Assembly: GCA_963827655.1 (NCBI GenBank)
Contig: CAWHCF010000022.1
Span: 348,967-412,966, forward strand
Direction of reading: 5' to 3'
DNA from: an uncultured Acidobacteriota bacterium
GTDB lineage: Bacteria; Acidobacteriota; UBA6911
DNA length: 64,000 nucleotides
Made by a program: the position numbers and the translations under genes. The notes below the pieces were generated by a model. That model was given only the letters and a program-made list of their open reading frames with translations, had not been told where the DNA came from and searched no databases. Numbering within the stretch: the stretch's first letter is position 1; each line of letters starts with the position of its first letter. Below, piece after piece: positions 317 to 59,339 of this stretch.

Positions 317-1421
317 TTGAAGGAGTCCGTTCTGCTAAGGAGAAGGATTATGCTCACGCGCATGCGTCCTGGTTCGAAGGAACTCTTGCTGCTTTTGACT
401 TTGATCTTTGTCATCAGTCTCGCGGGCTGCAGTACCACGACCGAGAAGAAAGCCGAGCCGCCTCCGTATGTGCCCGAAGTGCTTCCGATACCTGCGCCGC
501 CGACCGGATTCGAGCCCATGCCGGAGCCGCCCGATAATCCAACCACGCCCGAAAAAGTAGCCTTGGGCCGGCAGCTGTTCTTCGACAAACGGCTCAGTTT
601 CGACGGCAGCCGCTCGTGTTATTCGTGCCACCTCAACGAGCGCGGCCTTACCGACGGACTGCCGACTGCCGTGGGCGCAGGCAACAAGCCGCTGCCACGC
701 AGCAGCCCTTCGCTGTGGAATATCGGATATCACAAGGAGTTCTACTGGGACGGTCGCAGCCCGACGCTCGAGGCTCAAGCCCAGGCGGCCTGGGCCGGCG
801 GCAACATGGGCGCCAAGGGGCATGAAGGCGAAATCGTGGGCAAGATCAAAGCCATCCCGGGATACCGGGCGCAGTTTCAGAAGGTCTTCGCTGCCGACGC
901 TACTGCCGCAACCATAATGAAGGCGATTACGGCGTACGAGCGAACCATCGTTTGCGGCGACACGCCCTGGGACAAATTCCAGCAGGGGGACGCTTCCGCC
1001 ATCAGCGACGAAGCCAAAAGGGGTTGGGAGATCTTTCGTGGTAAAGCCGGATGCGGGACCTGCCACGCCGGGGCCCTCTTGACCGACCTGCAGTATCACA
1101 ACGTCGGGGTGGGAATGGATCAGCCCAAGCCGGACGAAGGACGCAAGAACTTCACCAAGGATGAGAAGGATACCGGGCGCGTTCAAGACGCCTACCTTGC
1201 GCAGCGTTTCGAAATCGGCGCCTTACTTCCACAACGGAAGCAAGGCAACCCTCGAAGAAGCCGTAGACTTCGTGCTGGGCGGAGGATACCCGAACAAATA
1301 CCTGGACAAGAAGAATCTGAAAAAAGTGAAGCTGACGGCGAAGGAGAGGGACGACCTCCTGGCATTCTTGAGATCGCTCGATTGCGGTGTGGAGCTGAAA
1401 GAGCCGAAACTGCCCGAATAA
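317..1421 (+). CDS. di-haem cytochrome c peroxidase (CCP/MauG family), reading frame broken by an apparent 1-nt insertion near 1165-1175
   Basis: CYSCH and CGTCH haem motifs. The downstream frame (ORF 1161..1421) carries the conserved CCP C-terminus '[10 protein letters not shown]...APYFHNGS'. Removing one c from 'gggcgcgttcaag' restores '...[11 protein letters not shown]'. Confidence 0.75.
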
Positions 1422-1430
1422 CAGGCCGGG

Positions 1431-1507
1431 TTCTTCGTGTCTTTGTGTCCTAGTGGTATTGGTTTCATAGCGCTAACCGCAAAGACACGAGGACGCGAAG
1501 AAATACC
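1431..1507. repeat. repeat family A, full palindromic copy (inverted GAAGACAC-unit arrays)
   Basis: ttcttcgtgtctttgtgtcctagtggtatt...taaccgcaaagacacgaggacgcgaagaaatacc. Confidence 0.8.
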
Positions 1508-2702
1508 AAGAGCGGTAGAGTTGTTTTCACGCATTGCTTCCAGGCTCCACGCAGAAACAAATCCACTCTATAGAATCCGCGCCCAGATCGAGTCCCGGGG
1601 AGAGCAGATACTCGACCTTGTCTCGGGAAATCCCAACCAGCACGGCATATTTTTTCCTCAAGAGCCGCTCGAAGCCAGTCTGATTCGTGGCGCGAGGCAG
1701 GCTCGCTGCTATCATCCCGATTCGTTAGGGCAGCGTCCGGCGCGGGAAGCCATTTCGTCCTACTATCGAAACCAGGGACTGGCAATCCCGCCCGAAAACA
1801 TCCTGCTTACTCCCGGAACCAGCATTTCTTACTGGTACTGCTTTAAACTGCTGGCCGATGAAGGGGAGGAGATTCTGTGTCCGCGCCCCTCGTATCCGCT
1901 CTTCGACTACATTGCCGAAATGAGCGGCGTGCGAATGGTTTCTTACCCTATGGACGAGGCTCGCGCCTGGGCTATCGACCTCGATCGTCTGGAGGCCTCG
2001 ATCTCCACCGGCACTCGTGCCATCATCCTCATATCGCCGCATAATCCCACCGGCCACGTCGCTTCGCTCGATGAGATCCACGGACTGGCCGAGATCGCCC
2101 GCCGGCATGACCTGGCGATCATCAGCGATGAGGTCTTCAGCGAATTCCTTTTCGAGTCCCAGGTCTTGCCCCGCGCGGCCGCCAGCGCCGCTCCGCTGGT
2201 TTTTACCCTCAACGGCTTCTCCAAAATGTTCGCTCTGCCCGGCCTCAAGCTGGGCTGGATGACGGTCTCGGGCCAGAGCGACCAGGTGAAAGACGCGATC
2301 CGCAGCCTGGAGCTGATCTCCGATACCTTCTTACCGGTGAATGAAATGGTTCAGGCGGCAGTCCCCGCCATCTTCGAGGAGGGGGGGACCTTCTTGAGAT
2401 TCTATGCTCGAGAAATAGCGCAGCGCTGGATGGAGGCGCGGCGGATTCTGAGCCGCTGCGCTCACATCGCCTTCGTCGAACCTGGAGGAGGATTCTACGT
2501 TACGCTGAAGCTCCAGAGCATTGAGGAAGAGCCGGCCGCGCAAGCAATTCTCGCCACCAACCATTTGCTGGCACATCCGGGTTACTTTTATGACATCGAT
2601 CCCGATCACCTGGTTTTGAGCTTCATCCAGGAGCCGGAGATCATCCGGACCAGCCTTCCCCGCCTTATTGCCACGTTAGAACATGCGTCCCGCTGTCTGT
2701 GA
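1437..2702 (+). CDS. PLP-dependent aminotransferase class I/II
   Basis: 'ISPHNPTGH', 'NGFSKMFALPGLKLGW' (Lys in the SK motif) and overall fold-type I aminotransferase pattern. The listed N-terminus is a read-through of the repeat at 1431-1507, so the true start is probably downstream (TTG near 1521). Confidence 0.75.
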   Translation: MSLCPSGIGFIALTAKTRGREEIPRAVELFSRIASRLHAETNPLYRIRAQIESRGEQILDLVSGNPNQHGIFFPQEPLEASLIRGARQARCYHPDSLGQRPAREAISSYYRNQGLAIPPENILLTPGTSISYWYCFKLLADEGEEILCPRPSYPLFDYIAEMSGVRMVSYPMDEARAWAIDLDRLEASISTGTRAIILISPHNPTGHVASLDEIHGLAEIARRHDLAIISDEVFSEFLFESQVLPRAAASAAPLVFTLNGFSKMFALPGLKLGWMTVSGQSDQVKDAIRSLELISDTFLPVNEMVQAAVPAIFEEGGTFLRFYAREIAQRWMEARRILSRCAHIAFVEPGGGFYVTLKLQSIEEEPAAQAILATNHLLAHPGYFYDIDPDHLVLSFIQEPEIIRTSLPRLIATLEHASRCL

Positions 2703-2808
2703 TTCTTCACGGTACGCACGTCAAGCAAACCAACAGGGAATCAAAGAATCGCTTGATGCCGGGCAGCGCAGGATCTATGATGGCGCACATCAAGTCACAA
2801 CCGGAGAT

Positions 2809-8802: not shown

Positions 8803-9189
8803 TCAACTGTGCGAAGGGAGAGGTTCGATCCGGTGTCGCAGCGACCTCTCCACGCGCGCGCTTCGCACCTGGCCCAGGTTTGGGAGCAGGTTGGAGAGGG
8901 TCTGGAGATACCCCTCCAGTGCGGAACGTCCTTCGGCGCTGAGCCGGTACGTGCTCTTGGGCTTCCGGTCTTCGAAGCGCTTGTCGCAGATCACGTATCC
9001 AGCTTCTTCGAGCTTCCGCGCCTGAACGCTTAGATTCCCGTCGGTCGTCTGCAACAACTCCCGGAGCTCCGTGAAGCTCAAAAAGTCCTGAACGACCAGC
9101 GCGGAAAGAATGCCGAGGCGCAGCCGTTCGTGAATCATAGGGTCCAGCTCACTCGGGGTGGGCCTGGTTTTCTTGCTTTTCTTAGCCAT
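8803..9189 (-). CDS. PadR-like winged-helix transcriptional regulator
   Basis: About 128 aa. 'GILSALVVQDFLSFTELRELLQTTDGNLSVQARKLEEAGYV' is the typical PadR/wHTH recognition-helix region. Start taken at MAKKSKK. Confidence 0.55.
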   Translation of the reverse strand: MAKKSKKTRPTPSELDPMIHERLRLGILSALVVQDFLSFTELRELLQTTDGNLSVQARKLEEAGYVICDKRFEDRKPKSTYRLSAEGRSALEGYLQTLSNLLPNLGQVRSARVERSLRHRIEPLPSHS

Positions 9190-9784
9190 TGTGCCTCCAG
9201 GCAATGTACCCGCCATAAACGATGTGCAACCACCCGAAACCTGCCGCCAGCCAGGTAAGCCCCATGCCTGGCGGCGACGCAGCCGCGCCGGTCGCCGTTA
9301 CCAGCAGGCACAGGCCCAGATAGCGCACGGGAGCAACCGAAACCTGCCCGCCGTTTACTACCGCCGCTCCATAGCAGCCGAGCCAGATGGCCGGAAGCCA
9401 CTCCAGGTTGCCCGAACGGACTGCCACACTGGTGAGAATGCCTCCCACGAAAAGCGACGGGCAGAGACTCCACAGCAACTTGCGAAGAAGAGGGGCCTGC
9501 AGTGGCGTGCGCAACTGCAGCGACTTGCGATAGATTCCGTAGGAACAGATGGCAAGGGAGAAGCCCAGGACGTAGCCCCAAACGTCCAGGGCGATGCCCG
9601 GGAACGCGCCCGGCCCCCACGGCGGGCCGGTGATCAAAGAATTGATGGCAACCCCGGCCAGCGCCACAAAGCCGGTTGCCATGAGACCCTTGCCGGGAAC
9701 CGCGGTAAACTGTCCGGCTGCTTCCAGGGTCCGGCGGATGTATTGAAGATCTTCGCGCGCAGTTTCCAAGTTCAACGGTTCCAT
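9182..9784 (-). CDS. integral membrane protein (partner of the PadR-like regulator, overlapping its start)
   Basis: Multiple hydrophobic helices. Its stop overlaps the start of the regulator, which implies an operon. Confidence 0.45.
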   Translation of the reverse strand: MEPLNLETAREDLQYIRRTLEAAGQFTAVPGKGLMATGFVALAGVAINSLITGPPWGPGAFPGIALDVWGYVLGFSLAICSYGIYRKSLQLRTPLQAPLLRKLLWSLCPSLFVGGILTSVAVRSGNLEWLPAIWLGCYGAAVVNGGQVSVAPVRYLGLCLLVTATGAAASPPGMGLTWLAAGFGWLHIVYGGYIAWRHNG

Positions 9785-13165: not shown

Positions 13166-13192
13166 TATCTAATACCGAAATGAATAGAATGC

Positions 13193-14135
13193 GTGCCGAA
13201 TTCGGCACAATTGAGGGTCTTCGTAAGGGCCATGAAGTGCACAGGCAGCGTCGACTCACTGCCCACTGCTTACTGCCTACTATTTACTGCTTTTCATGGA
13301 GAGTTCAGCTTGGCGACCCAAGACAAGTCTGGAGGCCAATTCCTGACGGCGGCGGGCCTGGCGGTTTTCTTCTGTGGCCTCGCCTTCGTGGGAACGTATC
13401 TCGTGATCACCAAGAAATGGTGGTTCCCCGAGGGCATTTCGTCCATTGCCCCTAGCATCGATTCGCAATTCGCCATCACCATGTGGATCTCGGGTATTGT
13501 TTTCGTCCTGGCGCAGGTAGCTCTCGGCGTCCTGATATTCCGTTTTCGCGATCGCGGAGGTCAGTCGCAGTATTCCCACGGCAACACAAAAATGGAAGTA
13601 CTGTGGACGGGCTTGACCGCGATTCTCTTCGTCGGCCTCGCGGTCATGGGCCGCACGGCCTGGGCGGAGCTCCATTTCCTGGGACCGGAACCCGGCGCGA
13701 TGCAGGTAGAAGTAACCGGAGCCCAGTTTGAATGGCAGTTTCGTTACCCCGGTCCGGACGGCCAGTTCGGGACCACCGATCCCAAACGGGTCAGCGAGAC
13801 TGCGGCGAATCCGCTCGGACTCGATCTGAACGAACCCGCAGCGAAAGATGACATCGTCATGCCGGTGATGGCGGTTCCGGTCAACCGGCCCGTGGAAGTG
13901 ATTCTGCGTTCGAAAGACGTGATCCACAGTTTTTTTGTCCCGCAGCTTGCGAGTAAAGCAGGATACCGTCCCGGGTCTGGCCATCCGAATTCACTTCACC
14001 GCCCAGAAAGAAGGCGAATATGAGGTCGCCTGCGCCGAGCTCTGCGGCCTGGGACACTACAAGATGCGAACCTCGTTTACCGTCATGTCCGAAGAGAATT
14101 TCCAGAAGTGGCTCAAGGAAAACGCGCCGCAATAG
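13193..14135 (+). CDS. coxB: cytochrome c oxidase subunit II, reading frame broken by an apparent 1-nt insertion near 13948
   Basis: Two N-terminal TM helices. 'DVIHSFFVPQL' then shifts into the frame carrying the CuA site 'EGEYEVACAELCGLGHYKM'. Removing g from 'cagcttgcgagtaaag' restores 'PQLRVKQDTVPG'. Confidence 0.85.
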
Positions 14136-15952: not shown

Positions 15953-16612
15953 ATGAATCCGACTTTAGTTGACACCGAACTCGAGACTCCGCCGGAGCTG
16001 GACCGCGGCGGCGGTGGCTTCAAGGACCCGGGCTCCGATGGCGGCGGAGATGGCGGCCGCGATCCGGTGGCGCGCTTTGATACTTACCAGACGGTAGTCT
16101 GGGTGTTGATGATCCCCATCGTCATGCTCTTTGCGGGTCTGACCAGCTCCCTGGTAATTCGCAAAGGGATATCCGACGATTGGATCTCGATCGAGATCCC
16201 AAAGATCTTGTGGCTGAACACACTGGTGCTCCTGTCGAGCAGCGCCGCCCTGGAAGTAGCGCGCCGCGCGCTGAAACGAGGGAACCACGACGGCTTTCGC
16301 GTCTGGCTCTGGATCACCGCGGCGCTGGGGACGCTCTTCCTGCTCGGCCAGATCGCAGCCTGGCGGGAACTGGCCGCGCAAGGGGCGTTTCTGTCCAGCA
16401 ACCCGAGCAGCGCTTTCTTTTACGTTTTGACCGCGTCGCACGGAGCCCACCTGATTGGCGGAATGGTCGCGCTGATCTACCTGACCATTCGAGTATTCCA
16501 GAACCAGTTCGGGGCAAGGCGGCGATCGGCGCTCAAGGCGACGGCGGTCTACTGGCACTTCATGGATGGTCTCTGGATCTACTTAATAGCCCTGCTGATT
16601 TTCTGGAGGTAG
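15953..16612 (+). CDS. coxC: cytochrome c oxidase subunit III
   Basis: Subunit III family ('YWHFMDGLW'). Confidence 0.85.
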   Translation: MNPTLVDTELETPPELDRGGGGFKDPGSDGGGDGGRDPVARFDTYQTVVWVLMIPIVMLFAGLTSSLVIRKGISDDWISIEIPKILWLNTLVLLSSSAALEVARRALKRGNHDGFRVWLWITAALGTLFLLGQIAAWRELAAQGAFLSSNPSSAFFYVLTASHGAHLIGGMVALIYLTIRVFQNQFGARRRSALKATAVYWHFMDGLWIYLIALLIFWR

Positions 16613-16616
16613 TCTC

Positions 16617-17249
16617 GTGGCACATGGCGAATCACACGCGATAGCGGTGGAGCCCACCTGGGAAGGAGGGGCCGCACCTTACGGAATAGGCTCCAAGAAG
16701 TTGGGCATGTGGTTGTTCATCGCAGCGGATACTCTCACGTTTTCGGCCTGCTTGATCGCCTACAGTTATGTGCGTCTGGCGAGTCCCGAGTGGCCCCGGC
16801 CTTTCGAGTGGGGCAGCATCGTCAATGCCATCGTCATGACGGCCTGCCTGCTCTCGAGCAGCTTGACCATGGTGATAGCGGTTGCCGCCGCCGCGCGCGG
16901 GGAGCGGAAGAAAACGGTGCGGTTCATCCTGTTTACCATCGCCGGCGGAGTCGCCTTCATCGTTCTGCATGCCCAGGAATGGATGGCCCTGATCGACCAC
17001 GAGCACGTGACCCCGTTTTCAAACCCCTGGGGCGTCCCTCTCTTCGGAGCCACGTTCTTTGCTCTGACCGGCCTCCATATGACGCACGTGACGATTGGAG
17101 TGATTTATCTGGCAATCATTGCGACCGGGGTCGGGCGCGGAAAGTTTACGCCGGAAGACGTGGAAGTCTCGGGTCTGTACTGGCACTTCGTCGATCTGGT
17201 CTGGATGTTCATTTTCCCGATGGTCTATCTTCTCTCGAACAAGTTTTAA
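16617..17249 (+). CDS. second cytochrome oxidase subunit III-family protein
   Basis: 'GLYWHFVDLVWMFIF' motif. It is a tandem paralogue of the preceding gene. Confidence 0.75.
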   Translation: MAHGESHAIAVEPTWEGGAAPYGIGSKKLGMWLFIAADTLTFSACLIAYSYVRLASPEWPRPFEWGSIVNAIVMTACLLSSSLTMVIAVAAAARGERKKTVRFILFTIAGGVAFIVLHAQEWMALIDHEHVTPFSNPWGVPLFGATFFALTGLHMTHVTIGVIYLAIIATGVGRGKFTPEDVEVSGLYWHFVDLVWMFIFPMVYLLSNKF

Positions 17250-17266
17250 GAGGCGGAGGCGTCGTA

Positions 17267-17575
17267 ATGTCTGCTCAAGATGCTCATGCGGTCGGCAGCA
17301 CAAAGCTCTTCATCTGGGTCTGGTTCTGGCTGGTGTTGCTGACAATTATCGAGGTCGTGCTGGCCTACCGGCGACTGGGTCTGGCGATGATGATCGTGAT
17401 CCTGCTGGGGCTTTCGTTAATGAAATCGGCTTTGATCATGGGTTACTTCATGCATCTCAAGTTCGAGAGAATGAGCCTGATCCTCACACTCATTCCTGCC
17501 CTCGTGATCCTGATCTGTCTGATGTTCATCAGCTTTCCGGACAGCGTCCGGATCCAACAATTGACTCCCAGGTGA
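17267..17575 (+). CDS. cytochrome oxidase subunit IV-like small membrane protein
   Basis: About 100 aa with 3 TM helices, immediately after the subunit III genes, with an ATG start at 17267. Confidence 0.5.
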   Translation: MSAQDAHAVGSTKLFIWVWFWLVLLTIIEVVLAYRRLGLAMMIVILLGLSLMKSALIMGYFMHLKFERMSLILTLIPALVILICLMFISFPDSVRIQQLTPR

Positions 17576-17704
17576 AATCGATGAATCGCGGATTGCAGAT
17601 CGGGGATGGCGGACTGGGACGCGTGACACCGGACTGTTTCCCTCAGGCGCGATCCAAGGATCGGGCTCGGGCGAACCGGCAAGCTCGCGCTGCCTCTGAT
17701 TGCG

Positions 17705-17887
17705 GTGCTGCTCGCCGGGTTCACGTCGCAAGCCTACGCGCAGGGCTGCGCCATGTGCCTGGCCAGCGCAATGTCGCAAGGGGTGCGAGCGATCGAAGCG
17801 ATGAATCTCGGAATCCTTATTCTTCTGGTCCCGCCGTTTCTCATGATCCTCGCCATCTTTACCTTTCTTTTTCTCCGCAGGTCATGA
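17705..17887 (+). CDS. small CxxC protein with C-terminal TM helix (hypothetical)
   Basis: ORF with 'QGCAMC' and a hydrophobic C-terminal anchor at the 3' end of the cox operon. Weak. Confidence 0.25.
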   Translation: MLLAGFTSQAYAQGCAMCLASAMSQGVRAIEAMNLGILILLVPPFLMILAIFTFLFLRRS

Positions 17888-18034
17888 CGATTGCGGATTG
17901 CGGATTGTAGTGATGCCATCGACAGACCTTAAGAATCCGAATCAAACTAATCCGAAATCTTACTTCTGTCGCTGAATTCGCCGTCCTCTAATCTTCTGTT
18001 TGCAGTTCAATCCGCAATCTGCAATCCGCAATTC
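17888..18034. repeat. inverted GATTGCG/CGCAATC arrays flanking about 100 nt at the 3' end of the cox operon (convergent with the TPR gene)
   Basis: acgattgcggattgcggattg ... caatccgcaatctgcaatccgcaattc. Confidence 0.6.
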
Positions 18035-18041
18035 CGAGGGG

Positions 18042-19064
18042 TTAACGCTTCAGGCGCTTCAGGTCTTTCTTGACTTCCTCGCTGTCGGGTTTCAGTTTCA
18101 GCGCGGCTTCCAACTCTGATACCGCTTCACGAGTACGGCTCATCTTTTCGAGCACGAGGCCGAGGCGCCAGCGTCCAGCCCAGATGGGAGGCGCGGTCGG
18201 TTCGGGCTCCTGCGTAAGGTACTTTCGAAAAGCGGCCTCGGCCCGCGTCAATTCCTTTCCGTTGCGCAGCAGAATATTGCCGGCCACGTAGTTAGGAGCA
18301 AGATTGTCCGGCACGTTCTTCTCGGCCTGGGCCAGTATCGCCTCGACTTCGGGCCAGCGCTCCTGGAGGGCGCCGCCGGCGGCCAGAAGAGTATAGGCGC
18401 CGACGCGTCCGGAATCGATGGCGAGCGCGGCGCGCGCATGCTTCTCCACCAGGTCAAACCTCACCGGGTTGCGTTCGATGTAAAGGCCGGCAAGTGATGT
18501 ATGCGCCTCGTAACTGCGCGGATCAGCCTGGGCGGCTTTGCGGTAAAGTTCCTCCAGCGTGCTCTTATCACGTTCCAACTCCGCCAGCTGTGCCGCAGCG
18601 AGATAGCCGCGCGCCGCATCGATTCGACCAACGCGCTCGGGAATCTCACGGGCCTTGTTCTTGTCCCCGCCTACGATTCCCGGCGCTTCCCATAGATACT
18701 CCATATAGCCGACCAGCAGCCGCACGTGGTAAGGATCAAGCTGGAGCGCCAGGTCCAGTTCCTTCTTGCAACGGCGCGCCAGGAGCGTCTGCCGGAAAAC
18801 AGAGGCGCGCTGGGCCATACGTCCGTAAACCTGCGCCAGAACGGCGCGATAGGAAGCATTGCGGCCGTCCAGGGCCACTGCTTTTTCGGCCAGCGGCAAC
18901 GCTCCGTCGAGATCGCCGTACTCCAGCTTGATTCGCGCCATCCACCAGAGCCCCGCGGCGTCGCTCGGATTTGCCGCCAAACGCGATTCCACCAGAGCAC
19001 GGGCGCGCTTCCAGTGTCCGGCTTCGATCAGCGATTCGACCGGCGGTGTTTGGGCCTTCGCCAT
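18042..19064 (-). CDS. TPR repeat protein
   Basis: Repeated A/L/Y-rich 34-residue motifs. Confidence 0.75.
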   Translation of the reverse strand: MAKAQTPPVESLIEAGHWKRARALVESRLAANPSDAAGLWWMARIKLEYGDLDGALPLAEKAVALDGRNASYRAVLAQVYGRMAQRASVFRQTLLARRCKKELDLALQLDPYHVRLLVGYMEYLWEAPGIVGGDKNKAREIPERVGRIDAARGYLAAAQLAELERDKSTLEELYRKAAQADPRSYEAHTSLAGLYIERNPVRFDLVEKHARAALAIDSGRVGAYTLLAAGGALQERWPEVEAILAQAEKNVPDNLAPNYVAGNILLRNGKELTRAEAAFRKYLTQEPEPTAPPIWAGRWRLGLVLEKMSRTREAVSELEAALKLKPDSEEVKKDLKRLKR

Positions 19065-19124
19065 CGCAACCGCAAGAACAAGGCCAGCACACCCGCTTTG
19101 AGGTTCATCCGGTTCTCGAGCCCA

Positions 19125-19242
19125 CGAAAAAGTGAAAAGTGCTGAGTAAAAAGTAGAAAGTTAGAACGGGCTTGGCCGTCGCTCGCCACTTTTGACTTTC
19201 AACTCAGCACTTTCCACTTTTTTTTACTCAGCACTTTTCACT
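19125..19242. repeat. about 118-bp near-perfect palindrome (35-bp arms) between the TPR and M23 peptidase genes
   Basis: aagtgaaaagtgctgagtaaaaagtagaaagtt...aactcagcactttccacttttttttactcagcacttttcactt. Confidence 0.7.
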
Positions 19243-20651: not shown

Positions 20652-20653
20652 GG

Positions 20654-21940
20654 TCAGGACCGATAGGCTTCCCTGCCGATTCCCTGAATGGGAATCCCTT
20701 GCGCTGCCAGGACCTCGTGCTGAAGCGCATACATGCAGCCTGCGGCGCGATCAATCGCCCGTGTGAAGGCGATGGAGCCTTTAAGTACCGGGAGCAGGCG
20801 AGCCTTGTCCTGGATCCGGGCCGGTGGATATTCATGCTCCACGACCAGGTGCGTCTCTTCAATCTTAAGATCGAGTAACTCACGAGCCGCCAGCTGATGA
20901 TCAAGCCAGTCGACGGACCGATTCTGCAAGTAGGCGAGCGGATCATGACGCGCGGTTCCAGGCAGTTCGTGCTCGCACAACACGACCTGCTTCAACCATG
21001 CATTCGCTTGATCCGCCGGGTTTGACGCGGGCTTGCCGTCTTTGCGATCTCCCCGAAGAACCGTCTGGCCTCCGTAGCCCCAGGCGGAAACACCTTTGGC
21101 GTTGACCACCTGTCCTTTGACGTGAAACCCTCCAATCAGGAACGGGTAGCCGCTGTCCTTGAGATACTGGAACAGAGAGCGTGTGTCCTGGCCCATCAGG
21201 ATGGCATGCGAAGGATCGTAGTGGATTCGCAAGTTGTCTCCGACTCCTGCCTTTTCAGCGATTCGATGCAGCGCAATCCACATGCCGGGCGTGTACCCAA
21301 TGTTGTTATGGTAGTTGTCCCCGGTGGTCCATCCAGGCATAGGGCACTGCTCGACCCGGTAAGTCAGTCCTCGATCCTTTGCCGCCTTCAGGAGAGGGAC
21401 GAAGCTGCCGCGAAAATCGTCGAGGTTCTGGTCCATGTCCAGGGCTTGATTGCGGCCTACGAAGCCGCAGACGGCATTCACTCCCAGCATGACCGCGGCA
21501 TCCATCGTTCGCAGCATGAATTCATGCTTCTTCTTTCGGATGGTCGGATCCTCATGCAGCATGTTGTCGAAATAGGCGACATCGGACAGGCCGATGCTGT
21601 AACGCTTCATGGCCGCGAGGACCCGGTTGGCCCGAGCCGAATTGAAGGGCTGCCGCAGATCCAGGGTATTGGCCACAGGATCGAGCATGGCCTCGGCCGG
21701 CACGTCGGACTCGGTGGGGTGGAGCGCCGCCGAGAGCTCAATGTAGTCAGCCCCAAGGTCACGCGCATACTCCAACCATTCTTCCACCGCGCGATCAGGG
21801 TCCGGATCACGAATCTCCCGGGGCGTGAGTTCCTGAAGAGCCGCCGTCAGCACGCCGATCTTCATAAACTTCGGTTCGAACTGCTTGAGTCCCGCTGGGC
21901 TCGAAACTCGTTCCTCCACTGCTTCGATATTGCTCGGCAT
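20654..21940 (-). CDS. xylose isomerase-like TIM-barrel protein (sugar phosphate isomerase/epimerase family)
   Basis: AP-endonuclease 2/xylose-isomerase-like barrel pattern. The specific function is not recognisable. Confidence 0.55.
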
Positions 21941-26587: not shown

Positions 26588-26588
26588 G

Positions 26589-47400: not shown

Positions 47401-47882
47401 ACCAGGAGCGGGGCGAAGGCCTGTGGCGGCGCAGTCTGTACACCTTCTGGAAGCGCACCATCATGCCGCCGGCGATGCAGGTGTTTGACGCAACGGCGCG
47501 CGAGTCCTGCACGGTGCGCGAACCGCGCACCAACACTCCGCTGCAGGCGCTCAATCTGATGAACGATGTCACCTATGTCGAAGCCGCGCGCCTGCTGGGC
47601 GAACGGATGATCAAAGAAGGAGGGGCCACGCCCGAGAGCCGCATCGCCTGGGCCTTTCGTCTGGCGACGGCGCGCTGGCCCGATGACAGCGAACGCCGGG
47701 TCCTGCTGGGCAATCTGAACGCTCAGCTGGATTATTTCCAGCGCCATCCCCAGGAAGCGGCCGGGCTGCTCTCGGTCGGCGCAAAGCGAAATGACGGGAA
47801 ACTGAGTGCCGCGGAAGTGGCCGCGTACTCGATAACGGCAAGTTTGCTGCTCAACGTCGACGAAGTCATTACCAAACAGTGA
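44487..47882 (+). CDS. PSCyt2/DUF1549 + DUF1553 domain protein (planctomycete-type), signal peptide
   Basis: 1131 aa. 'CWLCHGPDAPNKK' PSCyt haem-like motif near the N-terminus. A large DUF1553-type C-terminal region, immediately followed by a DUF1501 gene. Confidence 0.85.
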   Translation: MKQLVAVLKITTLLMLAACLLKLSTVHPAMAVNPQAGAALRRVDFNRDIRPILSDKCWLCHGPDAPNKKLKLRLDSEAAALAELSLGRRAIVPGHPEQSELVRRITAENELMRMPPAYSDRTLNQQEIELLTEWIRQGAVWQKHWSFIPPSRPALPAVTHKAWPRNPIDYFVLARLEKEGLQPAPEADRATLIRRVSLDLTGLPPTPAEVDAFLNDTSPNAYEKVVDRLLGSPRYGERMAFRWLDAARYADTNGYQLDGDRSMWRWRDWVIEAFNRNLPFDRFVIEQLAGDLLPNPSLDQKIATAFNRNHRNNSEDGIVPEEYAVEYVVDRVDTTSTVFMGLTIGCARCHNHKFDPITQKEYYQLYAYFNNLPEDGRVSNFGNAPPWIFAPDREQQRQLKQLEAAMARTGKQLAALVTGSIAAQRRWEKSLSATPNLQWFPPDHLLVRHALDERAELEVKESAEKSEAKASDEDDARIDSVPPEGNPSANPKGVETGFKNGTPKFVPAPTGQGVEFDGNIFFDAGKAANFDYRDRVHDFKHRFAISAWIYPESENSGAIVTRMRDNAEAKENGLPKLKGYGLFFVNGKIHFNLVGVWADDSFRVETANRLPPGQWHHFLATFDSQEPLEKVRIFINGKQEKLQINQGRLFRQFADSGANLRIGGGGGADMRFKGAIDEVRIYTILPDAEQIAILACADSLDRIAGIPPGQRSEGQRLKILNAFLENGAPAPMKRLWQELRQLKDQRAKLELTLPTVMVMQELTEPRPAHLLKRGAYDAAGEKVERGVPAALPSMPPKFPNNRLGFAQWLVSRDHPLTSRVTVNRFWQMLFGTGLVKTVEDFGAQGELPSHPELLDWLAVEFMNPALGAENGSNGENHSQAKGWNIKALLKTIVMSATYRQSSRVAPQLQQLDPENRLLARGPRLRLPAEMIRDQALFVSGLLVENLGGMSVRPYQPEGLYKDMAFSNMTGYNQERGEGLWRRSLYTFWKRTIMPPAMQVFDATARESCTVREPRTNTPLQALNLMNDVTYVEAARLLGERMIKEGGATPESRIAWAFRLATARWPDDSERRVLLGNLNAQLDYFQRHPQEAAGLLSVGAKRNDGKLSAAEVAAYSITASLLLNVDEVITKQ

Positions 47883-49436
47883 TTGGGTTAGAATCAGGAT
47901 CAGTTATGGCTGAAACGATCAAACTCGGAATGAGGCGAGCTGAAGCCGAGAGCGTGCGCGAATCAATCCACCAGCTGAGACTCGAGCAACATTTGATGAT
48001 GACGCGCCGGCAATTCTTCGGTCGGTGCAGCCTGGGAATCGGTACGGCGGCGCTGGCGACACTGCTCACCGAGAACGGTCACGCCGCGATGCTGCCGCAA
48101 GGCGGCGAAGCAAGACCCGGCCTGCCCGGGTTGCCGCATTTTGCGCCCAAGGCGAAGCGGGTCATTTACCTGTTTCAATCGGGCGGCGCCCTCGCAACTG
48201 GAACTCTTCGATCATAAGCCGCAGCTTGAAAAATATCGCGGCCAGAATCTGCCGGAATCCATCCGGATGGGACAGCGGCTGACGGGGATGACGGCGTATC
48301 AGGCAAACTGGCCTACGGCGCCTTCGATTTACAAGTTCGCGCAGCACGGAAGCTCAGGGGTGTGGTTGAGCGAACTGCTGCCTCACACGGCGCGCGTGGT
48401 TGACGAGTTGTCCTTCATCAGGTCGATGCACACGGAGCAGATCAATCACGATCCGGCGATCACCTTTTCACTCACCGGATTCCAGCTGGCCGGCAAACCA
48501 AGTATGGGCTCGTGGATCGCTTACGGGCTGGGCAGCGAAAATAAAGACCTGCCCGCCTTCGTGGTCATGGTTTCAGTCGGCACGGGCAACAAGGGCGACC
48601 AGCCTTTATATGATCGGCTGTGGGGCAGCGGCTTTCTGCCCTCGCGCCATCAAGGAGTCAAGTTTTATCCTGGCGCCGACCCCGTGCTCTATCTGTCAAA
48701 CCCTTCCGGCGTCGATGACGAGGTGCGCCGCCGCTTCCTGGACGATCTGGCCCGGCTGAATCAGAAGAATGCCCAGGAATTCGGCGATCCTGAAATCCTC
48801 GCGCGGGTGGCCCAGTACGAAATGGCCTATCGCATGCAATCTTCCGTGCCGGAACTGACCGACCTTTCCCAGGAGCCGGAACAGACTTTTGAGCACTACG
48901 GCCCGGACGCGCGCAAGCCGGGAACTTACGCGCGACACTGCATTCTGGCTCGCCGTCTGGCGGAACGCGGCGTGCGCTTCATTCAGCTCTTCCATCGCGG
49001 CTGGGATCATCATAACGACTGCCCCAAGCAGATCAAGGCTCAGTGCCAGGATACGGACCAGGCGACCGCGGCGCTGATCACCGACTTGAAGCAGCGCGGG
49101 CTGCTCGATGACACCCTGGTGATCTGGGGAGGAGAGTTCGGACGTACGGTCTACAGCCAGGGCAAACTGACGGCGGAGAATTACGGGCGCGATCATCATC
49201 CGCGATGCTACACGGTGTGGTTGGCCGGAGGGGGTATCAAGCCCGGCGTGAGCCTGGGTGAAACCGATGATTACAGTTACAACATCGTGCGCGATCCGGT
49301 GAGTGTTTACGATCTGAACGCGACCATCCTTCATTGCCTGGGAATAGATCACACCCGGCTGACTTACAAGTTTCAGGGACGAAATTTCCGCCTGACCGAT
49401 GTTCACGGCCAGGTGATGAAGCAGATCCTCGCCTGA
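47879..49436 (+). CDS. DUF1501 family protein (sulfatase-like fold) with Tat signal, reading frame broken by an apparent 1-nt insertion near 48188
   Basis: 'MMTRRQFFGRCSLGIGTAALATLL' signal. 'HFAPKAKRVIYLFQSGG' shifts frame into 'PSQLELFDHKPQLEKYRG'. Removing g from 'ggcggcgccctcg' restores 'QSGGPSQLELFDH'. Confidence 0.8.
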
Positions 49437-49447
49437 AGAAGTGCAGA

Positions 49448-49483
49448 AATACCGCTAAGACGCGAAGACACAAAAAAACACGG
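49448..49483. repeat. repeat family A, half copy (reverse-complement of the left arm)
   Basis: aataccgctaagacgcgaagacacaaaaaaacacgg. Confidence 0.7.
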
Positions 49484-49488
49484 AACTC

Positions 49489-50814
49489 TCAGAGCCAGCC
49501 GCCCTGGAAGCCGGCGCGGCGCAGCCCCGCAGCAATGTAAGGCGAGCGGCGGGTGATGTTCCAGATCAGCCCGGTGCGGTAATTCTCGATCATGAGCGCC
49601 ACGGGCCCCTGGTCGACGCCGAAGTGATAGGGCGTCACCCACCAGCCGGTCTGGCTGTCCGGCACCAGGTACGTCTGATTGAAGGACGGCTTGAAGCCGT
49701 AGCGCTTCGTCATGCCGAGGTCGAGCCGGGCCATGGCGCGTATCGTGGGGATCACGATCTCCGGGGCGAACGGCAGCGAGGCCACCACGACCCACGGCGC
49801 CAGCGTGCCGTCGTCGGGGCCAAAGGGCGCCCCGCGCGCGTAGTAGTCGTAGAACTGTCGCTCGACGCCGTTGACCAGCCGCTTCTCCCAGCCGGGTCCG
49901 TCGGTTGCCGTGATCCCCCAGCAGAACTCGCCGTAGCCGGCGAATTCGAGCGGGTTGTGCCGCGCGTACTCCTGGTGAACGTACGTCGCCTGGCGGCTGT
50001 TCTTGAAGTAGTCGCTGTCGTGCTCCCGCATGAACGCGTCGCGGACGTCGCGCAGGTCGACCCAGAGATGCGAGAGCTGGTGCGTGAAGAGCGGCCCGGA
50101 GTAGAGCAGTTCGCGGCCGTAGATCTGCTTCCAGCTGTAGGTAGAGCAGTAAGCCGCGTAGCTCTCCGGCGGCAGGGGAAAGGTCGGTGAGCCCAGAGCG
50201 AGCAGGTAAACGAGCAGCGCCTCGTCGTAGCCGGTCCAGTAGTGGGGAATGAAGCCGTTCTCCGGCCTCCACCCGTGGGAGATCGCGGGGCCGCCGTTCG
50301 TCGCCCACTGCCAGTCGGCGCGGCAATAGAGCTCGTCGGCCAGCCGGCGCAACTCGGCCTCCTCCTCGGTATCGCCATCGAAGTAGGCGGCGCAGGTGAG
50401 CATTCCGGCAAACAGGAAGGCCGAATCGATGGTCGAGAGCTCGCACTCCCAGACGCGCCGCCCGGTCTTCATGTCGAGGAAGTGATAGTAGAAGCCCCGG
50501 TATCCGGTCGCATCCGGCTGCGGGCCGTGCGGGCTGTCGCGGAAGAAGCGCAGCCGCTTCAGCACCAACTCCGGGGCGAACTCGCGGGAAATCACGCCGC
50601 GTTCGATCAGCACGGGAATCGTGGTCAGCGCCAGGCCGATCGCGGCGATGCTCGACGGCGCCCTGGGGTCGGTCTTGTCGCGGATCAGGCCGTTGGCCGG
50701 GTTGCTCTCGTGGAGGTAGTACTGGAGCGTCGTCAGCTGCAGCCGCCCCAACTCCTCATCACTCGGCAGGCGGTTCAGGTCTTCTCCGGTTGTTTGGCCG
50801 TCGGCTGTTTCCAT
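49489..50814 (-). CDS. glucoamylase-like (alpha/alpha)6-barrel glycoside hydrolase (DUF3131/GH144-like)
   Basis: 441 aa. Resembles the glucoamylase-like proteins commonly encoded beside GH94 phosphorylases. Family assignment is from memory of motif style only. Confidence 0.5.
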   Translation of the reverse strand: METADGQTTGEDLNRLPSDEELGRLQLTTLQYYLHESNPANGLIRDKTDPRAPSSIAAIGLALTTIPVLIERGVISREFAPELVLKRLRFFRDSPHGPQPDATGYRGFYYHFLDMKTGRRVWECELSTIDSAFLFAGMLTCAAYFDGDTEEEAELRRLADELYCRADWQWATNGGPAISHGWRPENGFIPHYWTGYDEALLVYLLALGSPTFPLPPESYAAYCSTYSWKQIYGRELLYSGPLFTHQLSHLWVDLRDVRDAFMREHDSDYFKNSRQATYVHQEYARHNPLEFAGYGEFCWGITATDGPGWEKRLVNGVERQFYDYYARGAPFGPDDGTLAPWVVVASLPFAPEIVIPTIRAMARLDLGMTKRYGFKPSFNQTYLVPDSQTGWWVTPYHFGVDQGPVALMIENYRTGLIWNITRRSPYIAAGLRRAGFQGGWL

Positions 50815-50820
50815 GATTCT

Positions 50821-53800
50821 TCACGACCCGAGCGCAATCCGGACCTGGTGCTGTCCGCCGTCGTCCGCCAGTTCGACCACGCCCTCCGGCGCCGCGCGTC
50901 CATCGACCGTCACGCTTCGGACCCCACGACCGGCGCCTCCTGAGTTTTCAACAACGACGTGGTAGGTGGTTGAGCGGTGGCGGTAGGTGATCTCGTAGCC
51001 GGACCAGCCGGGCGGGACGCAGGGATCCAGCTCCAGCCGGGTGCCCCGCAGGCGGAAGCCAAGAATTGCTTCCAGACCGACCCGGTACAGCCAGGAGGCG
51101 GAACCGGTATACCAGGTCCACCCGCCGCGGCCGGTGTGCGGCGGCGCGCCGTAGACATCGGCGCAGACCACGTACGGCTCCACCTTGTACCGTTCCACCC
51201 CGTCGGGAGAGGCGGCGTGGCGGACCGGGTTGAGCAGGTCGAACAGCTCCGCTGCCCGCTGGCCCTCCCCCAGCAGCGCCGTCGCCAGCACCACCCACGT
51301 GGCGGCGTGCGTGTACTGGCCGCCGTTCTCGCGAATCCCCGGCACATAGCCCTTGATGTAGCCCGGTTCGAGGCGCCCGCGGTCGAACGGAGGCGTGAAG
51401 AGCAGGATCAGCCCGTCCGCGTCCCGCACCAGGCGCTCCTCGACCGCCGCCATCGCCTGACGGGCGCGCTCGGGATCGCCGCCCCCGGAAATCACCGCCC
51501 ACGACTGGGCAAGCGAGTCGATCTGGCACTCGTCGTTGGTCGCCGAGCCCAGCGGAGTTCCGTCGTCGAAGTAGGCGCGCCGGTACCAGCGCCCGTCCCA
51601 TGCATGTTCCTCCAGGGCCGCGCGCAGCGCCTCGGCCCGCTCCCGGCACCAGGCGGCGCGCGCACTGTCCCCGCGCCGTTCCGCCAGGCCCGCGAACTCG
51701 CGCAGAGTGGCGAGCATGAACCACCCGTTCCAGACGCTCTCCCCCTTCCCCTCGGCCCCCACCTTGTTCATCCCGTCGTTCCAATCGCCGGTGCCCATCA
51801 AGGGCAGGCCGTGCGGACCCAGTTTCAGGCCGCATTCCAGCGCCCGCTCGCAGTGCTCGTAGACGCTCCCGACCTCCGCGCTTACCTCCGGCAGACCGTA
51901 GTCTTCTTCCTGGTCCGGACGGAGAACCGGCGCGTGCAGGAAGGGGACGGGCTCGTCGAGCAGGGACGCGTCGCCGGTGACGCCGACGTGGTGTGCAACA
52001 ACCAGCGGCAGGAAGACAAGATCGTCGGTAATGCGCGTGCGGACGCCGCGACCTGCGGGCGGGTGCCACCAGTGCTGCACGTCGCCTTCCTCGAACTGGC
52101 GCGCCGCCGCGCGCAGGATCTGGGCCCGCGCCTCCTCAGGAGCGCCGTAGACGATGGCCATCGCGTCCTGGAGCTGGTCACGGAAACCGAATGCCCCGCC
52201 CGACTGGTAGAACGCCGACCGGCCCCACATTCGACAGGCGAGCGCCTGGTATATGAACCAGCGGTTCAGCATCAGGTCCATCGCCGGGTCCGGCGTGCGG
52301 ACCTGGACCGTCCCGAGGATGCGATCCCAGAGTGCGCGGACTTCCTCCAGCGCCGCCTGCACCCGGCCCGGCGCGGCGTAAGCGCGGACGAGTCGTCGGG
52401 CCTCGTCCGGGGTCTCGGCCTGCCCGAGCAGGAAGACGATCTCCTCCTCCCCGCCCGGCGCCACGTCCAGCGGCGTCATCAGTGCGGCGCACGGGTCGAC
52501 CAGTTCGCCGGCACGGCCGGAGAGCCGCGACCGGCCAAGGGCGGCCGGCGCTTCCGGAGAGCCCTCGCGGCCGAGGAACTCGGCCCGATCGGTCGTGAAG
52601 GAGACGCGGCGGCGTGTCCGCGCGGATCGCGGCTACGGCGGCGAAAGCGACCTCCCCGGCGAAGTCGCCCGCCCAGGCGTTGGTGGCGAACAACGCGCCG
52701 GTTTCCGCGTCGGCCGAGCACACCACCTGCGAGGAGGCCTGGTCGCGGAGGCCGCCCAGGACCCACTCGGCGTAGAATGTCGCCGACAGGCGGCGCGGCC
52801 GCCTGCCCATGTTCCGCACGCCAAGGCGGACCATCTTGACCGGATCGGTGGGCGAGATCAGGACGAGGAGGTCCTGCTCCAGGCCGTGGCTGGTTTGCGT
52901 GAAGCGGCTGTAGCCCTGGCCATGCCGGACGACCGTCGTCGCCTCGCCCCCGCACGGCGCCGGCGTCGGCGACCAGAACTCTCCGGTCTTCTCGTCGCGG
53001 AGGTAAACGACCTCGCCGGGCGGGTCGGTCACGGGATCGTTGCTCCAGGGCGTGAGCCGATTCATCTGGCTGTTGCCCGCCCAGGTGTAGCCGCCGCCGG
53101 CCTCGGTGACCAGGCAGCCGAAGTCGGGATTGGCCAGCACGTTAATCCACGGCGCCGGCGGTCGCTCGCCGGCGCGCAAAGTGATGACGTACTCGCGGCC
53201 ATCCGTGGTGAACCCGCCAAGACCATTGTGGAAGAGCAGAGCCGAGCCGCCGCCCGGCGAGCCCCCGGCGACCGCTGCCTTCGGGCGGCCGCGTGGGCGC
53301 AGCGGTGGAGGCAGTGGCGGAGCGCTCGCGAGCGGCCGGCCCAGCTGCGCGGCCAGCGGACCATCACCCCCGCGGAGGATGAGACGGGCGGCCGCCTCGA
53401 GCAGTGTCGTGTCGTCCGCGGACATGCGAGACGCGTCGCGGAGGAACACGCCGCCCGGCTTGTCGACCAGTTCTGCCGTGGGCGCGTTCTGCACCAGCTC
53501 CTCCAGCCCGCCGCGCAGTTCGTCGCCCTCGCCATCGTCGTACAGAAGGACCAGGTCCGCCACGAGCCCGCAGCGGCGCCAGTACGCGTGTGCCTGCAGA
53601 GCCTCCCGCGCCATATCCAGGTTGCGGTCCGCTCCGATTCGCACCAGCGCGATCGGCAGGTCGCCGGAGATGGCGTGCGGCCACAGTCCCGGTTGACCGA
53701 GACGGTTCCGGGTGACCGACTCGAGCGACCGCATGGATGGGCTCGCAAAGAGGACGGGCGCCGCCAGCCGCTGGAACAGCGCGGCGTCGTCCGGCGACAC

Positions 53801-54709
53801 GCCTAGCTCGGCCCGCCGCGCGGCGTCGCTCGCGGTGGTCTCCTCGAAGATGCGGTCCACGGCCTCCAGGCTGCCGAACCGGGCGGCCAGCGCCAGGGCC
53901 TGGTCCCGATCTTCGGGCGCGGCGGTGGTAAACGCCAGGACGGCGGACGCTCCCGACTCGACCCGGATCCGCCGGCGCAGGCTGAAGACCGGGTCCAGCA
54001 CCGGCCCCACGGTCCCCGAAAGCGCCGCGCCGCCGTCCATCGCCGCCGGGTTCGCCGTGGAGCGTCCCCGCCCCAGGAAGCGAGCGCGGTCGGTCTCGTA
54101 CTCGACCTCTCCCGGCGCATCGCTTGCCAGAACATGGAGAGCCCAGACCGGCTGCTGATCGTGGGCGCGCGGCCGGCGGCGGCAAAGCAGGGCGCGCGAC
54201 GACGCGAGGTATTCGGTCTCCAGGAAGAGCTTGGCGAAGGCCGGGTGTGCCTGGTCGGCGCGGCGCGGATTGAGTGCCACCTCGGCGTAGCTCGTCACCT
54301 CCAGCGTGCGGGGCCTGTCGCCGCGGTTGGTAAGGGTGACGCGGCGGACTTCCGCGTCGGCGTCGGGAACGACCGCGACTTCGTAACAGGTCTCCACGTC
54401 GCCGTCGCGACGACGGAAAATCGCGCGGTCGGGACGCAGATCCGCCTTGTACTCGTCGGCGTTTCGCCCGAGGGGCTGGCGCCCGGCAGACCAGGCGCGG
54501 CCGTCGTCCAGGTCGCGGACGTAGCAGTACTGGCCCCAGCAGTCGCGGGTAGCGTCCTCCCGCCAGCGGGTCACGTCCATCCCGTCCCGGAGGCTGTAGC
54601 CACCCCCCGACGCGGTCAACATGACGCTGTAGCGGCCATTGGAAAGCAGGCAGATTTCCGGGGGCGAACCGGGAAGGTCAACGAGGTTCGGCTTTTTCGG
54701 CTTTGACAT
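50821..54709 (-). CDS. GH94 family glycoside phosphorylase (1,2-beta-oligoglucan/cellobiose phosphorylase-like), reading frame broken once near 52630
   Basis: N-terminal beta-sandwich domains in ORF 52178..54709. The catalytic (alpha/alpha)6 region 'GFRDQLQD...GTGDWNDGMN' is in ORF 50821..52479. A third-frame read across the junction gives 'RVSFTTDRAEFLGREGSPEAPAALG...DPCAALMTPLDV'. Confidence 0.8.
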
Positions 54710-54725
54710 CTTGGAATACCTGCAC

Positions 54726-54813
54726 GATTCTTGGCGTTTCTTCGTGTCTTTGAGACTTGGTGGTATTTGTTAGACAGTTCTAACCACGAAGTCACGAAGA
54801 CACGAGCACACGG
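54726..54813. repeat. repeat family A, full copy
   Basis: gattcttggcgtttcttcgtgtctttgagacttggtggtattt-gttagacagttc-taaccacgaagtcacgaagacacgagcacacgg. Confidence 0.85.
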
Positions 54814-57423: not shown

Positions 57424-58731
57424 ATGCCTGCAAAACTTTCCCGCCGAGTCTTCCTGAGAGGGTTGGCCCTGACAAGCGTTCCGGTTCGAATGGCGCTTCC
57501 GCCGTTGGCGGCGATGTTCGATAGCCGCGGTGAAGCTTATGCGGCCGACGACCAGCCGATCGAGTCGCGTTTCGTGCTCTGGTTCAACGGGAATGGCATT
57601 CCGGAAAAGTACTGGATTCCGATGGAAACGGGAGAGAAATACAGTCTGACGCCTTGTCTCACCCCTCTGGCTCCGTTTCGCAGCGACATTCACGTCGTTA
57701 CCGGGCTGGACAACGCGGCTGCGACGCTGCCCGGACCCGGCAACGGCCATCACAAATCAATGAGCGCGCTGATGACCGGAACCTCGTTCACCGGGCGCGG
57801 CGCGGGCGGCCCATCCATCGACCAGGCGATTGCTTCCAAGATCGGCGGGGATACCCGATTCCGTTCGCTCCAGATTGGCGTCTCGCAGGAATCATTCGGA
57901 GAGAGTGTTCAGCGGAACATGAGCTGGGCGGCGCACGACCGGCCGCTCCCTCCCGAGATGCTGCCGCACAAGCTTTTCGATCGGCTGTTCGGACAGCGGG
58001 AGTTGGGCTGGGTCAAGCGACAGAAGAGCGTTCTGGACGCCGTCCGGGAAGATGCCCGGCAGCTGAAGCGAACCGTCGGCCAGCAGGATCAAGCTCGACT
58101 TGAAGAACATCTCGACTCCGTGCGCGACGTCGAACGAGCGATCGCCAGCCTTCCCCCAAAGTACCATCGAGTGGATCCTCCCGACTACGACGGTGACATG
58201 AAGGATTGGCCTCGGATCGCAAAGCTGCAATCCGATCTGCTGGCCCACGCGTTCTCAACCGGGCAGACGAGGGTGGCCTCCTACATGCTGACCAAGTGTC
58301 AGGGGTTGTCGCGCTTTCCCTGGCTGGGATACACGGCGGCGCGGCACCACGACTATACTCATCGCGACGGGAAGGCGCCGGGGGCCGATGGGCCCGATGG
58401 CCAGCGCATCCTGCGCGACATTTGCCGCTGGCACATCGAAGAGTTCGCCTACTTTCTCGGAAGATTGAAATCGGTTCCGGAAGGAAATGGGACGCTGCTC
58501 GATCGCTGCGCGGTGCTTCTGGTTCACGAGCATGCCGAGGCGAACGACCACAAGAACAACGGCCTGTCCGTCATACTTGCCGGACATGCCAAAGGGTTGA
58601 AAACCGGCCTCCACACACGAACCACCGGCACCACGGGAGATCTTTACCTGACCCTTGCCAACGACGTTATGGGCGCAGGGCTGGAGCGCTTCCCGACGGC
58701 CGAGCGCAAGCTGACCGAGATTCTTGCCTGA
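57424..58731 (+). CDS. DUF1552 family protein with Tat signal
   Basis: '[17 protein letters not shown]'. Conserved 'HHDYTHRDG' region. Starts 4 nt after the DUF1592 stop. Confidence 0.8.
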
Positions 58732-58736
58732 AAAAA

Positions 58737-58778
58737 CTTACCGCTAAGACTCAAAGACACGAAGAAACGCCAAGAATC
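58737..58778. repeat. repeat family A, half copy (reverse-complement of the left arm)
   Basis: cttaccgctaagactcaaagacacgaagaaacgccaagaatc. Confidence 0.8.
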
Positions 58779-58819
58779 TTTGCCCCAAAAAGCAAGCACA
58801 GCTCGTGCCGCGGTCCCAG

Positions 58820-59339
58820 TCAATTGGCCTTTGCAACAGGGCGATACTGGTAGTCCTGCGGTTTTTCCTTTTCGGTTCCGTCCCCTTCGACGCGCGCGCT
58901 TAACGTCCCATCACCATTCTTGCGATAAATGACGCGTTTGGGAAAATCATGCGCCAGGTTCTCGAAGACAGCTTCGTGCCCGCTCAGCCGCACCAGTTTG
59001 AAGTCCGTGCCGGGAGTCCTCGCCCGCGGATGGGCCACGTAATAGATATCGGCGCCGCGCGCTTCAATGCGCAGATACTCGAAAGAATACGGTCTTGCCT
59101 GCGGCCACGGTCCGGCTCATGCCGATCAACGAATTGCCTGCGACCTTCGTCCAGTGTTCGTCAATCTGCATGCGGCCCGAAGCCGTTTCCCAGTCGCCGC
59201 TGATCCAGGCCAGGTCCTCGATCTTGAAGGATTGCGCCTGGTCCGATTGACCCGTCTCGACCGCGGGCGAGAGCACTGCGGCCAGTCCGATTACCAGGAG
59301 CGCAGTTCCGAGCGATAGCGTCCTCGATCTTTCGAGCAT
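58820..59339 (-). CDS. hypothetical secreted protein, reading frame broken by an apparent 1-nt insertion near 59075
   Basis: ORFs 59064..59339 and 58820..59038 join as '...KTVFFEYLRIEARGADIYYVAHPRA...' after removing c from 'ttctttcgagtatctg'. Confidence 0.45.

Follow-up and report, generated by a model that had tools for sequence, protein, structure and literature searches.

Small frameshifts in many genes, with neighbouring genes left intact, are found in the pseudogene-rich, decaying genomes of recently host-restricted bacteria, and an offset of one extra base occurs in programmed +1 frameshifting of the prfB type. Broken frames also have a technical source: the proovframe preprint (10.1101/2021.08.23.457338) describes frameshifts that persist after polishing of long-read assemblies, and raw PacBio reads with about 8% insertions versus 3% deletions, and Sereika et al. 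(2022; PMC9262707) describe Nanopore consensus errors as homopolymer indels, in connection with the IDEEL test. A 64-kb stretch of an assembly from an uncultured Acidobacteriota bacterium (G000:C22:348967-412966; hereafter the window, meaning the whole stretch analysed) contains numerous genes whose reading frame is broken. Our analysis indicates that these breaks are very probably single-base consensus errors of the deposited assembly rather than mutations that the bacterium itself carries; the coxB, peroxidase, receptor, DUF1501, and GH94 genes are most likely intact in the living cell. Most of the errors would be spurious extra bases and some would be missing bases, occurring about once per 4-5 kb across the 8.2-Mb, 53-contig metagenome-type assembly.

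The assembly comprises 8.18 Mb in 53 contigs of up to 569 kb, with a G+C content of about 0.59; marker completeness for the whole assembly is 90.3% and contamination 2.4%. The gene content (Oar-type receptors, PSCyt/DUF1501 pairs, and sulfatases) fits a soil heterotroph. A codon-usage model trained on 923 long open frames of the genome was used for a seven-state frame-tracking scan over the window, every same-strand jump of coding potential between frames was then tested by homology, and Pfam scans were run on the 63 stop-to-stop frames of the window. The nearest relative compared was G007 (70-80% DNA identity; an 800-contig assembly). By word search, the stretch was detected in 20 soil or rhizosphere runs from 16 studies (top share of sampled words 0.52), and contigs of four runs (X1 to X4; soil or rhizosphere metagenomes from four studies) were aligned to window positions 17001-37000.

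The codon model, Pfam, orthologs, and metagenome contigs together validate 13 frame breaks in nine genes. Judged by frame offset, 11 are of extra-base type and two (36008 and 26217-26259) of missing-base type. They are given below with their strand and the open frames that they separate; initial sites are those of an initial annotation made from the sequence alone.

1176-1186, plus strand: di-haem cytochrome c peroxidase (CcP), open frames 233-1450 and 1083-1418; extra-base type
13932-13975, plus strand: coxB, open frames 13184-14020 and 13923-14132; extra-base type (initial site 13949-13954)
20436-20446, minus strand: M23 peptidase, open frames 19241-20455 and 20418-20750; extra-base type
26217-26259, plus strand: hypothetical gene 24838-26462, break near its 3′ end; missing-base type, or two extra bases
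31368, minus strand: sulfatase, open frames 31230-32828 and 31055-31807; extra-base type
33988-33995, plus strand: Oar-type TonB-dependent receptor, break 1 of 5; extra-base type
34067, plus strand: same receptor, break 2 of 5; extra-base type
34935-34939, plus strand: same receptor, break 3 of 5; extra-base type
36008-36009, plus strand: same receptor, break 4 of 5; missing-base type
36197-36209, plus strand: same receptor, break 5 of 5; extra-base type
48126-48184, plus strand: DUF1501 gene, break near its 5′ end, open frames 47795-48214 and 48003-49433; extra-base type (initial site 48182-48191)
52605-52632, minus strand: GH94 glycoside phosphorylase, open frames 50824-52632 and 52181-54769; extra-base type
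59067-59116, minus strand: DUF6265 gene, open frames 58823-59116 and 59067-59345; extra-base type (initial site 59078-59084)

The initial annotation had reported at least ten genes interrupted by insertions, a number that falls to nine on our count. All eight genes that it named are broken where it placed them, as seen from split Pfam domains and from single G007 frames that match in two window frames; the sulfatase broken at 31368 was absent from its list. Its description of every break as an insertion holds for 11 of the 13 and fails for 36008 and 26217-26259, which are of deletion type. Four breaks had been assigned to the receptor, where we count five, the one placed in the zone 33806-33998 corresponding to two (33988-33995 and 34067). 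A break that it called probable in the gene at 24838-26465 was confirmed through the homologs L077 and L078, and the ctaD, PSCyt, and LRR genes that it described as intact do have open frames. The six junction strings that it quoted are all present (at 1175, 13949, 20434, 48182, 59078, and 36197); at two sites, the extra base in independent contigs is about 10 nt away from its reconstruction (20446 versus about 20437, and 36209 versus about 36200).

Eight of the 13 breaks fall in 17001-37000, the stretch compared with the X1 to X4 contigs. At six of the eight, this independent sequence of the same species lacks the indel, making the break private to the window assembly; of the other two, one was unlisted and one uncovered. 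In the M23 peptidase, one letter at 20446 is missing from the X1, X2, and X3 contigs, the X4 contig has one base fewer over 19925-20531, and a G007 open frame of 486 aa matches in two window frames. In the sulfatase, the X1 contig lacks one letter at 31368, and X3 and X4 each contribute a contig with one base fewer over this position; coding potential and protein run on for about 100 residues in the other frame from exactly the 31368 codon. Single letters are also missing from the metagenome contigs at two intergenic places (22320 and 30911), and the extra bases are therefore not limited to genes.

The Oar-type receptor is the most heavily affected gene, with its OMP_b-brl_4 domain spread over adjacent frames (Pfam positions 1-94, 124-410, 413-752, and 745-821 of 838). 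At break 1 the G007 ortholog matches frame 3 and then, from 33988, frame 1, the first frame closing at 33995. At break 2 the contigs of all four metagenomes (X1, X2, X3, and X4) lack one letter at 34067, and the G007 alignment leaves frame 1 for frame 2 at 34073-34089. Over 33798-34585 the X2 contig has two bases fewer, which fits breaks 1 and 2 alike. Break 3 separates the G007 matches at 34559-34939 (frame 2) and 34935-35939 (frame 3), with OMP_b-brl_4 positions 124-410 and 413-752 lying in the two frames. Break 4 runs in the opposite direction: the X1, X2, X3, and X4 contigs all carry an additional A after 36008, and L022, a G007 paralog or ortholog, matches 35283-36008 (frame 3) and 36011-36223 (frame 2). 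At break 5 one letter at 36209 is missing from the X1 contig, an X3 contig compared over 35696-36274 shows two gaps that cancel out in length across 36008-36209, and L022 matches frame 2 and then frame 3 from 36183. Identity to the G007 orthologs is 77-84% on either side of the receptor breaks.

Breaks also occur outside the window, in genes on which a living cell depends. Of six essential genes, four are split, each at a single locus and with an extra-base offset: rpoB (profile positions 4-961 and 921-1238 lie in different frames), rpoC (at position 538/543), secA (at 145), and dnaE (at about 225). The gyrA and ileS genes are unbroken, and a synthetase paralog caught by the ileS model is also split. 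The DUF1501 family, counted at 35 loci after exclusion of three short fragments, has 28 intact members and seven split by 10 breaks, about one break per 5 kb and equal to the window's 13 in 64 kb. A genome scan over all contigs counted a frame switch when it lay inside an open frame by more than 30 nt; as a control, evenly spaced samples totalling 400 kb were taken from G045, a relative with a complete one-contig genome, and scanned with a model trained on them. Per Mb of coding sequence, extra-base switches number 116.5 versus 17.1 in G045 and missing-base switches 40.8 versus 5.7, so that frame switches inside open frames stand about 7-fold above this single control genome, and in-frame stops (45 versus 105 per Mb coding) are not raised. 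All 53 contigs are affected, at 1.9 to 28 switches per 100 kb coding (median 9.3). The indels therefore appear regardless of gene function, in essential genes, in a fifth of the DUF1501 loci (7/35), and on every contig (53/53), and come with no parallel rise in other inactivating changes.

These results bear on the possibility that the frameshifts are genuine, very recent, and private to the assembled strain, as fresh pseudogenes in a decaying genome or a mutator lineage. The breaks are, after all, present in the deposited sequence, and five of them in one receptor gene beside intact neighbours are what a dead gene would show. However, genome decay would spare essential genes and bring nonsense codons with it. 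Here the rate is equal in essential and dispensable genes, splits of rpoB, rpoC, secA, and dnaE at single loci would be intolerable for a living cell, there is no surplus of in-frame stops, the protein is as similar to G007 after each break as before it, and the four independent metagenomes lack the indels where they cover the sites. We consider genuine frameshifts of this kind very unlikely. The initial annotation had left the choice between a systematic indel-type assembly error and a load of fresh pseudogenes or programmed frameshifting; the private breaks, the genome-wide hits in essential genes, and the absence of extra in-frame stops support the former, and the lack of a common motif and the single-frame orthologs leave the latter without support.

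The size of the problem can be approximated from the same scan, whose criterion recovers seven of the 13 validated window breaks. By our own arithmetic, the 1,069 events found genome-wide, minus about 155 expected from the control, scale to about 1,700 breaks; we estimate that the assembly holds roughly 1,000-1,700, with a floor of about 900, or about one per 4-5 kb. The events are over-dispersed (variance-to-mean ratio 1.71 in 10-kb bins, with up to 12 per bin), in agreement with the five breaks in the single receptor gene.

Duplicated sequence within the assembly was also compared with itself. Fifty-six non-self alignments of at least 800 nt and at least 95% identity, many of them at contig ends, contain 413 gap openings versus 2,445 mismatches in 123.7 kb. 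The six longest pairs hold 58 one-base indels, of which 15 lie at a frame switch of one copy only and two at a switch in both. As evidence for consensus error, these internal duplicates are supportive but weak. Stretches of 5-9 kb recur between contigs at 96-99% identity, many of them at contig ends (for example C17:2824-12043 with C22:28764-37978, and C11:34793-43211 with C15:8242-16663); strain variants that were not collapsed, or contig ends that overlap, are their likely source, and they bear on the 2.4% contamination.

The bias toward one extra base, seen in 11 of the 13 window breaks, in all four split essential genes, and in the synthetase paralog, could in principle mean that the cell reads the extra bases, whether by programmed +1 ribosomal frameshifting, by transcriptional slippage, or by quadruplet decoding. 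Such a mechanism would be expected to show a common slippery sequence, and a universal signal would stand out several-fold. Within 20 nt of 668 extra-base-type switches, no shared k-mer is prominent: enrichment peaks at 1.41-fold for 4-mers (CGGC) and does not exceed 1.69-fold for 5-mers, AAAAA is under-represented, and words that contain a stop are scarce as a consequence of how the test is built. A methylation-type motif such as TCGA, suspected from a few contexts, was dropped when the genome-wide k-mer test gave no enrichment. At the five sites located by contigs, the affected letter is one of a pair of identical letters in three cases and stands alone in two, about the chance level, and no homopolymer link was found either at these sites or genome-wide. 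The flat k-mer profile and the chance-level runs thus indicate that there is no slippery site, quadruplet word, or homopolymer link. In addition, missing-base breaks occur too (36008 and 26217-26259 in the window, 40.8 per Mb genome-wide), and the proteins are encoded in one frame in orthologs and other strains, as seen in the single frames of G007 and in 75 of 80 metagenome coxB loci. Decoding of the extra bases by the cell is close to refuted. It is equally far-fetched that the extra bases are real in the living population and tolerated even in rpoB, rpoC, secA, and dnaE; if true, this would need an efficient, sequence-independent +1 correction in transcription or translation.

The breaks in CcP, coxB, DUF1501, GH94, and DUF6265 lie outside the stretch compared with the metagenome contigs, and homology to G007 and Pfam places them. 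G007 single frames match two window frames in CcP, coxB, the M23 peptidase, the TonB-dependent receptor, and DUF1501. For CcP, a G007 open frame of 370 aa matches 314-1177 (frame 2) and 1176-1418 (frame 3), with Pfam CCP_MauG in the first piece and a RoxA-like cytochrome c match, under the family cut-off, in the second. For coxB, COX2 positions 4-83 and 72-114 of 120 lie in two frames, and a single G007 open frame matches both pieces. One open frame likewise matches both pieces at 75 of the 80 metagenome loci found with CtaD, the remaining five having less than 300 nt upstream of ctaD; these loci, from the JGI metagenome collection, are cross-species evidence, the CtaD search for a same-species coxB contig in that collection having returned nothing nearer than 81% protein identity. 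The G007 homolog of the DUF1501 gene (485 aa) matches 47981-48184 (frame 2) and 48126-49433 (frame 3), and the Pfam match covers positions 10-390 of 390, that is, begins at 10. In GH94 the second supersandwich domain is split, its positions 191-251 of 251 beginning at residue 10 of the downstream piece, and the codon model changes frame at 52612/52613. The DUF6265 domain is divided between positions 1-44 and 41-115 (of 116), in two frames that are both open only across 59067-59116. In the hypothetical gene, the C-terminal 59 residues of L077 (531 aa) and L078 (503 aa) match 26283-26462 in the other frame at 42-46% identity, and both frames are open only across 26217-26259; the gene body (24838-26259) is matched, weakly, in only two of 50 other family genomes, which is enough to locate the break.

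It is at these less covered sites that a mixed explanation would apply, with consensus errors throughout except for one or two of the 13 breaks, which would be real strain-specific pseudogenes in dispensable genes such as GH94, DUF6265, or the hypothetical gene. The breaks at 1176, 13949, 48182, 52605-52632, and 59067-59116 are supported by cross-species evidence, and 26217-26259 has zero cover, leaving room for such cases. On the other hand, about one error per 4-5 kb already predicts about 13 in 64 kb, with no additional source needed. This explanation, which overlaps the favoured one and differs from it at a small minority of sites, we regard as unlikely, if clearly less so than a genome full of genuine frameshifts.

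Several points weigh against attributing the breaks to consensus error. No run with identical sequence, and none with the assembly's own reads, was found by the word search (best share 0.52), and the metagenome contigs speak for other strains or populations without the indels and not for the assembled strain itself. Support for the CcP, coxB, DUF1501, GH94, and DUF6265 breaks comes from other species, the X1 to X4 contigs give zero cover of 26217-26259, and receptor break 3 (34935-34939) showed no metagenome indel among the rows listed. The G045 control is a single genome from another genus, with a G+C content of 0.53 versus 0.59, and 41 of the 58 one-base indels in the internal duplicates coincide with no detected frame switch. 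Five breaks in one 3.4-kb gene exceed a uniform error rate (Poisson P <0.001, by our own arithmetic), and a gene hit so many times also resembles an old pseudogene. Finally, the homopolymer-free profile contrasts with the Nanopore description, so that attribution to a platform is uncertain.

Consensus error nevertheless remains the explanation that we favour. Breaks private to one assembly, equal hits in essential and dispensable genes, no extra nonsense codons or decay of the downstream protein, and no common signal together form the signature of consensus indel errors, and the completeness of only 90.3% despite 53 contigs is counted as further support. A noisy, incompletely polished long-read assembly is suggested by the contiguity of this soil genome, by the bias toward insertions, and by the absence of any tie to homopolymers. 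The receptor cluster and the genome-wide over-dispersion suggest a locally poor consensus, which low coverage, or an admixture of reads from paralogs or co-occurring strains, would explain; the receptor has same-genome paralogs at 69-78% DNA identity, making a low-coverage or mixed-read consensus plausible there.

Other candidate frameshifts in the window were rejected. The overlap at 9185-9297 is a normal gene boundary, with the same two overlapping frames in G007; 22690 is a normal boundary within a Phd/YefM-PIN pair; and 27990 is the end of an intact FMN dehydrogenase. A one-letter gap at 28199, in high-depth X1 and X2 contigs, lies inside an uninterrupted FMN_dh match and was left uncounted, being taken as another organism's homolog. 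Two COX3-like genes and a COX4 gene are separate genes by Pfam.

The tandem COX3-like genes (15953-16612 and 16617-17249), followed by COX4_pro, occupy 15953-17575 downstream of ctaD, and all are intact. The Phd/YefM antitoxin and PIN-domain toxin pair lies at 22472-23123; one X3 contig is two bases shorter over 22727-23430, where there may be further small indels. The GH94 gene and an adjoining glucoamylase-like gene (49400-54800) form a block of G+C 0.68-0.72 versus about 0.59 elsewhere, without a counterpart in G007, and are possibly a horizontally acquired island. In G007 itself, the receptor ortholog (L002/L020, G007:C771) spans two overlapping frames where the window is continuous, and an open frame beside the COX3/COX4 genes (L012, G007:C532) matches two window frames; the G007 assembly may also carry indels.

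At 22125-22273 lies a repeat, about 149 nt long, of which G007 has at least 37 copies (84-94% identity). Summed metagenome depth in its bin is 570-1,620 versus about 5-20 elsewhere, and the high-depth bins 29007-29673 and 31008-31674 suggest more copies of the repeat. The X1, X2, and X4 contigs join about 29184-29221 straight to about 31021-31024, omitting the sulfatase gene at 29368-30843; the flanks of this joint are only 20-28 letters long and lie within repeat elements, and the joint may be a repeat artefact rather than a strain without the gene.

The feature is not biological, and its value is that of a quality warning, with an estimated 1,000-1,700 spurious frame breaks in the assembly. 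Gene calls, protein lengths, pseudogene counts, and completeness in this genome need checking against relatives, and the same applies to any reading of a "split gene", a "truncated enzyme", or a "novel small ORF". Should this genome be used to represent its species, all downstream annotation would gain from re-polishing or from frameshift-aware correction.

In comparison with known systems, the genome resembles those of decaying host-restricted bacteria in having many genes interrupted by small frameshifts beside intact neighbours; unlike them, its essential genes are hit as often as others, stops are not raised, conservation continues past the breaks, and other strains are unbroken. With prfB-type frameshifting it shares the offset of one extra base, and it differs in having no conserved shift site, orthologs without the shift, and about a thousand sites instead of one gene. 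The likeness to long-read consensus indels is closer: isolated one-base indels, one per few kb, occur on all contigs and in all gene classes, essential genes included, with split gene calls, no rise in nonsense codons, and lowered marker completeness, and contigs of the same species that were obtained independently from short reads do not contain them. Residual indels of this kind in long-read-only genome and metagenome assemblies are the target of IDEEL-type tests and of frameshift correctors, proovframe among them. Within that group, the errors in this assembly, mostly extra bases without a homopolymer tie, are unlike the Nanopore consensus errors described in PMC9262707; the insertion-rich profile fits better with that given for raw PacBio reads in the proovframe preprint (10.1101/2021.08.23.457338).

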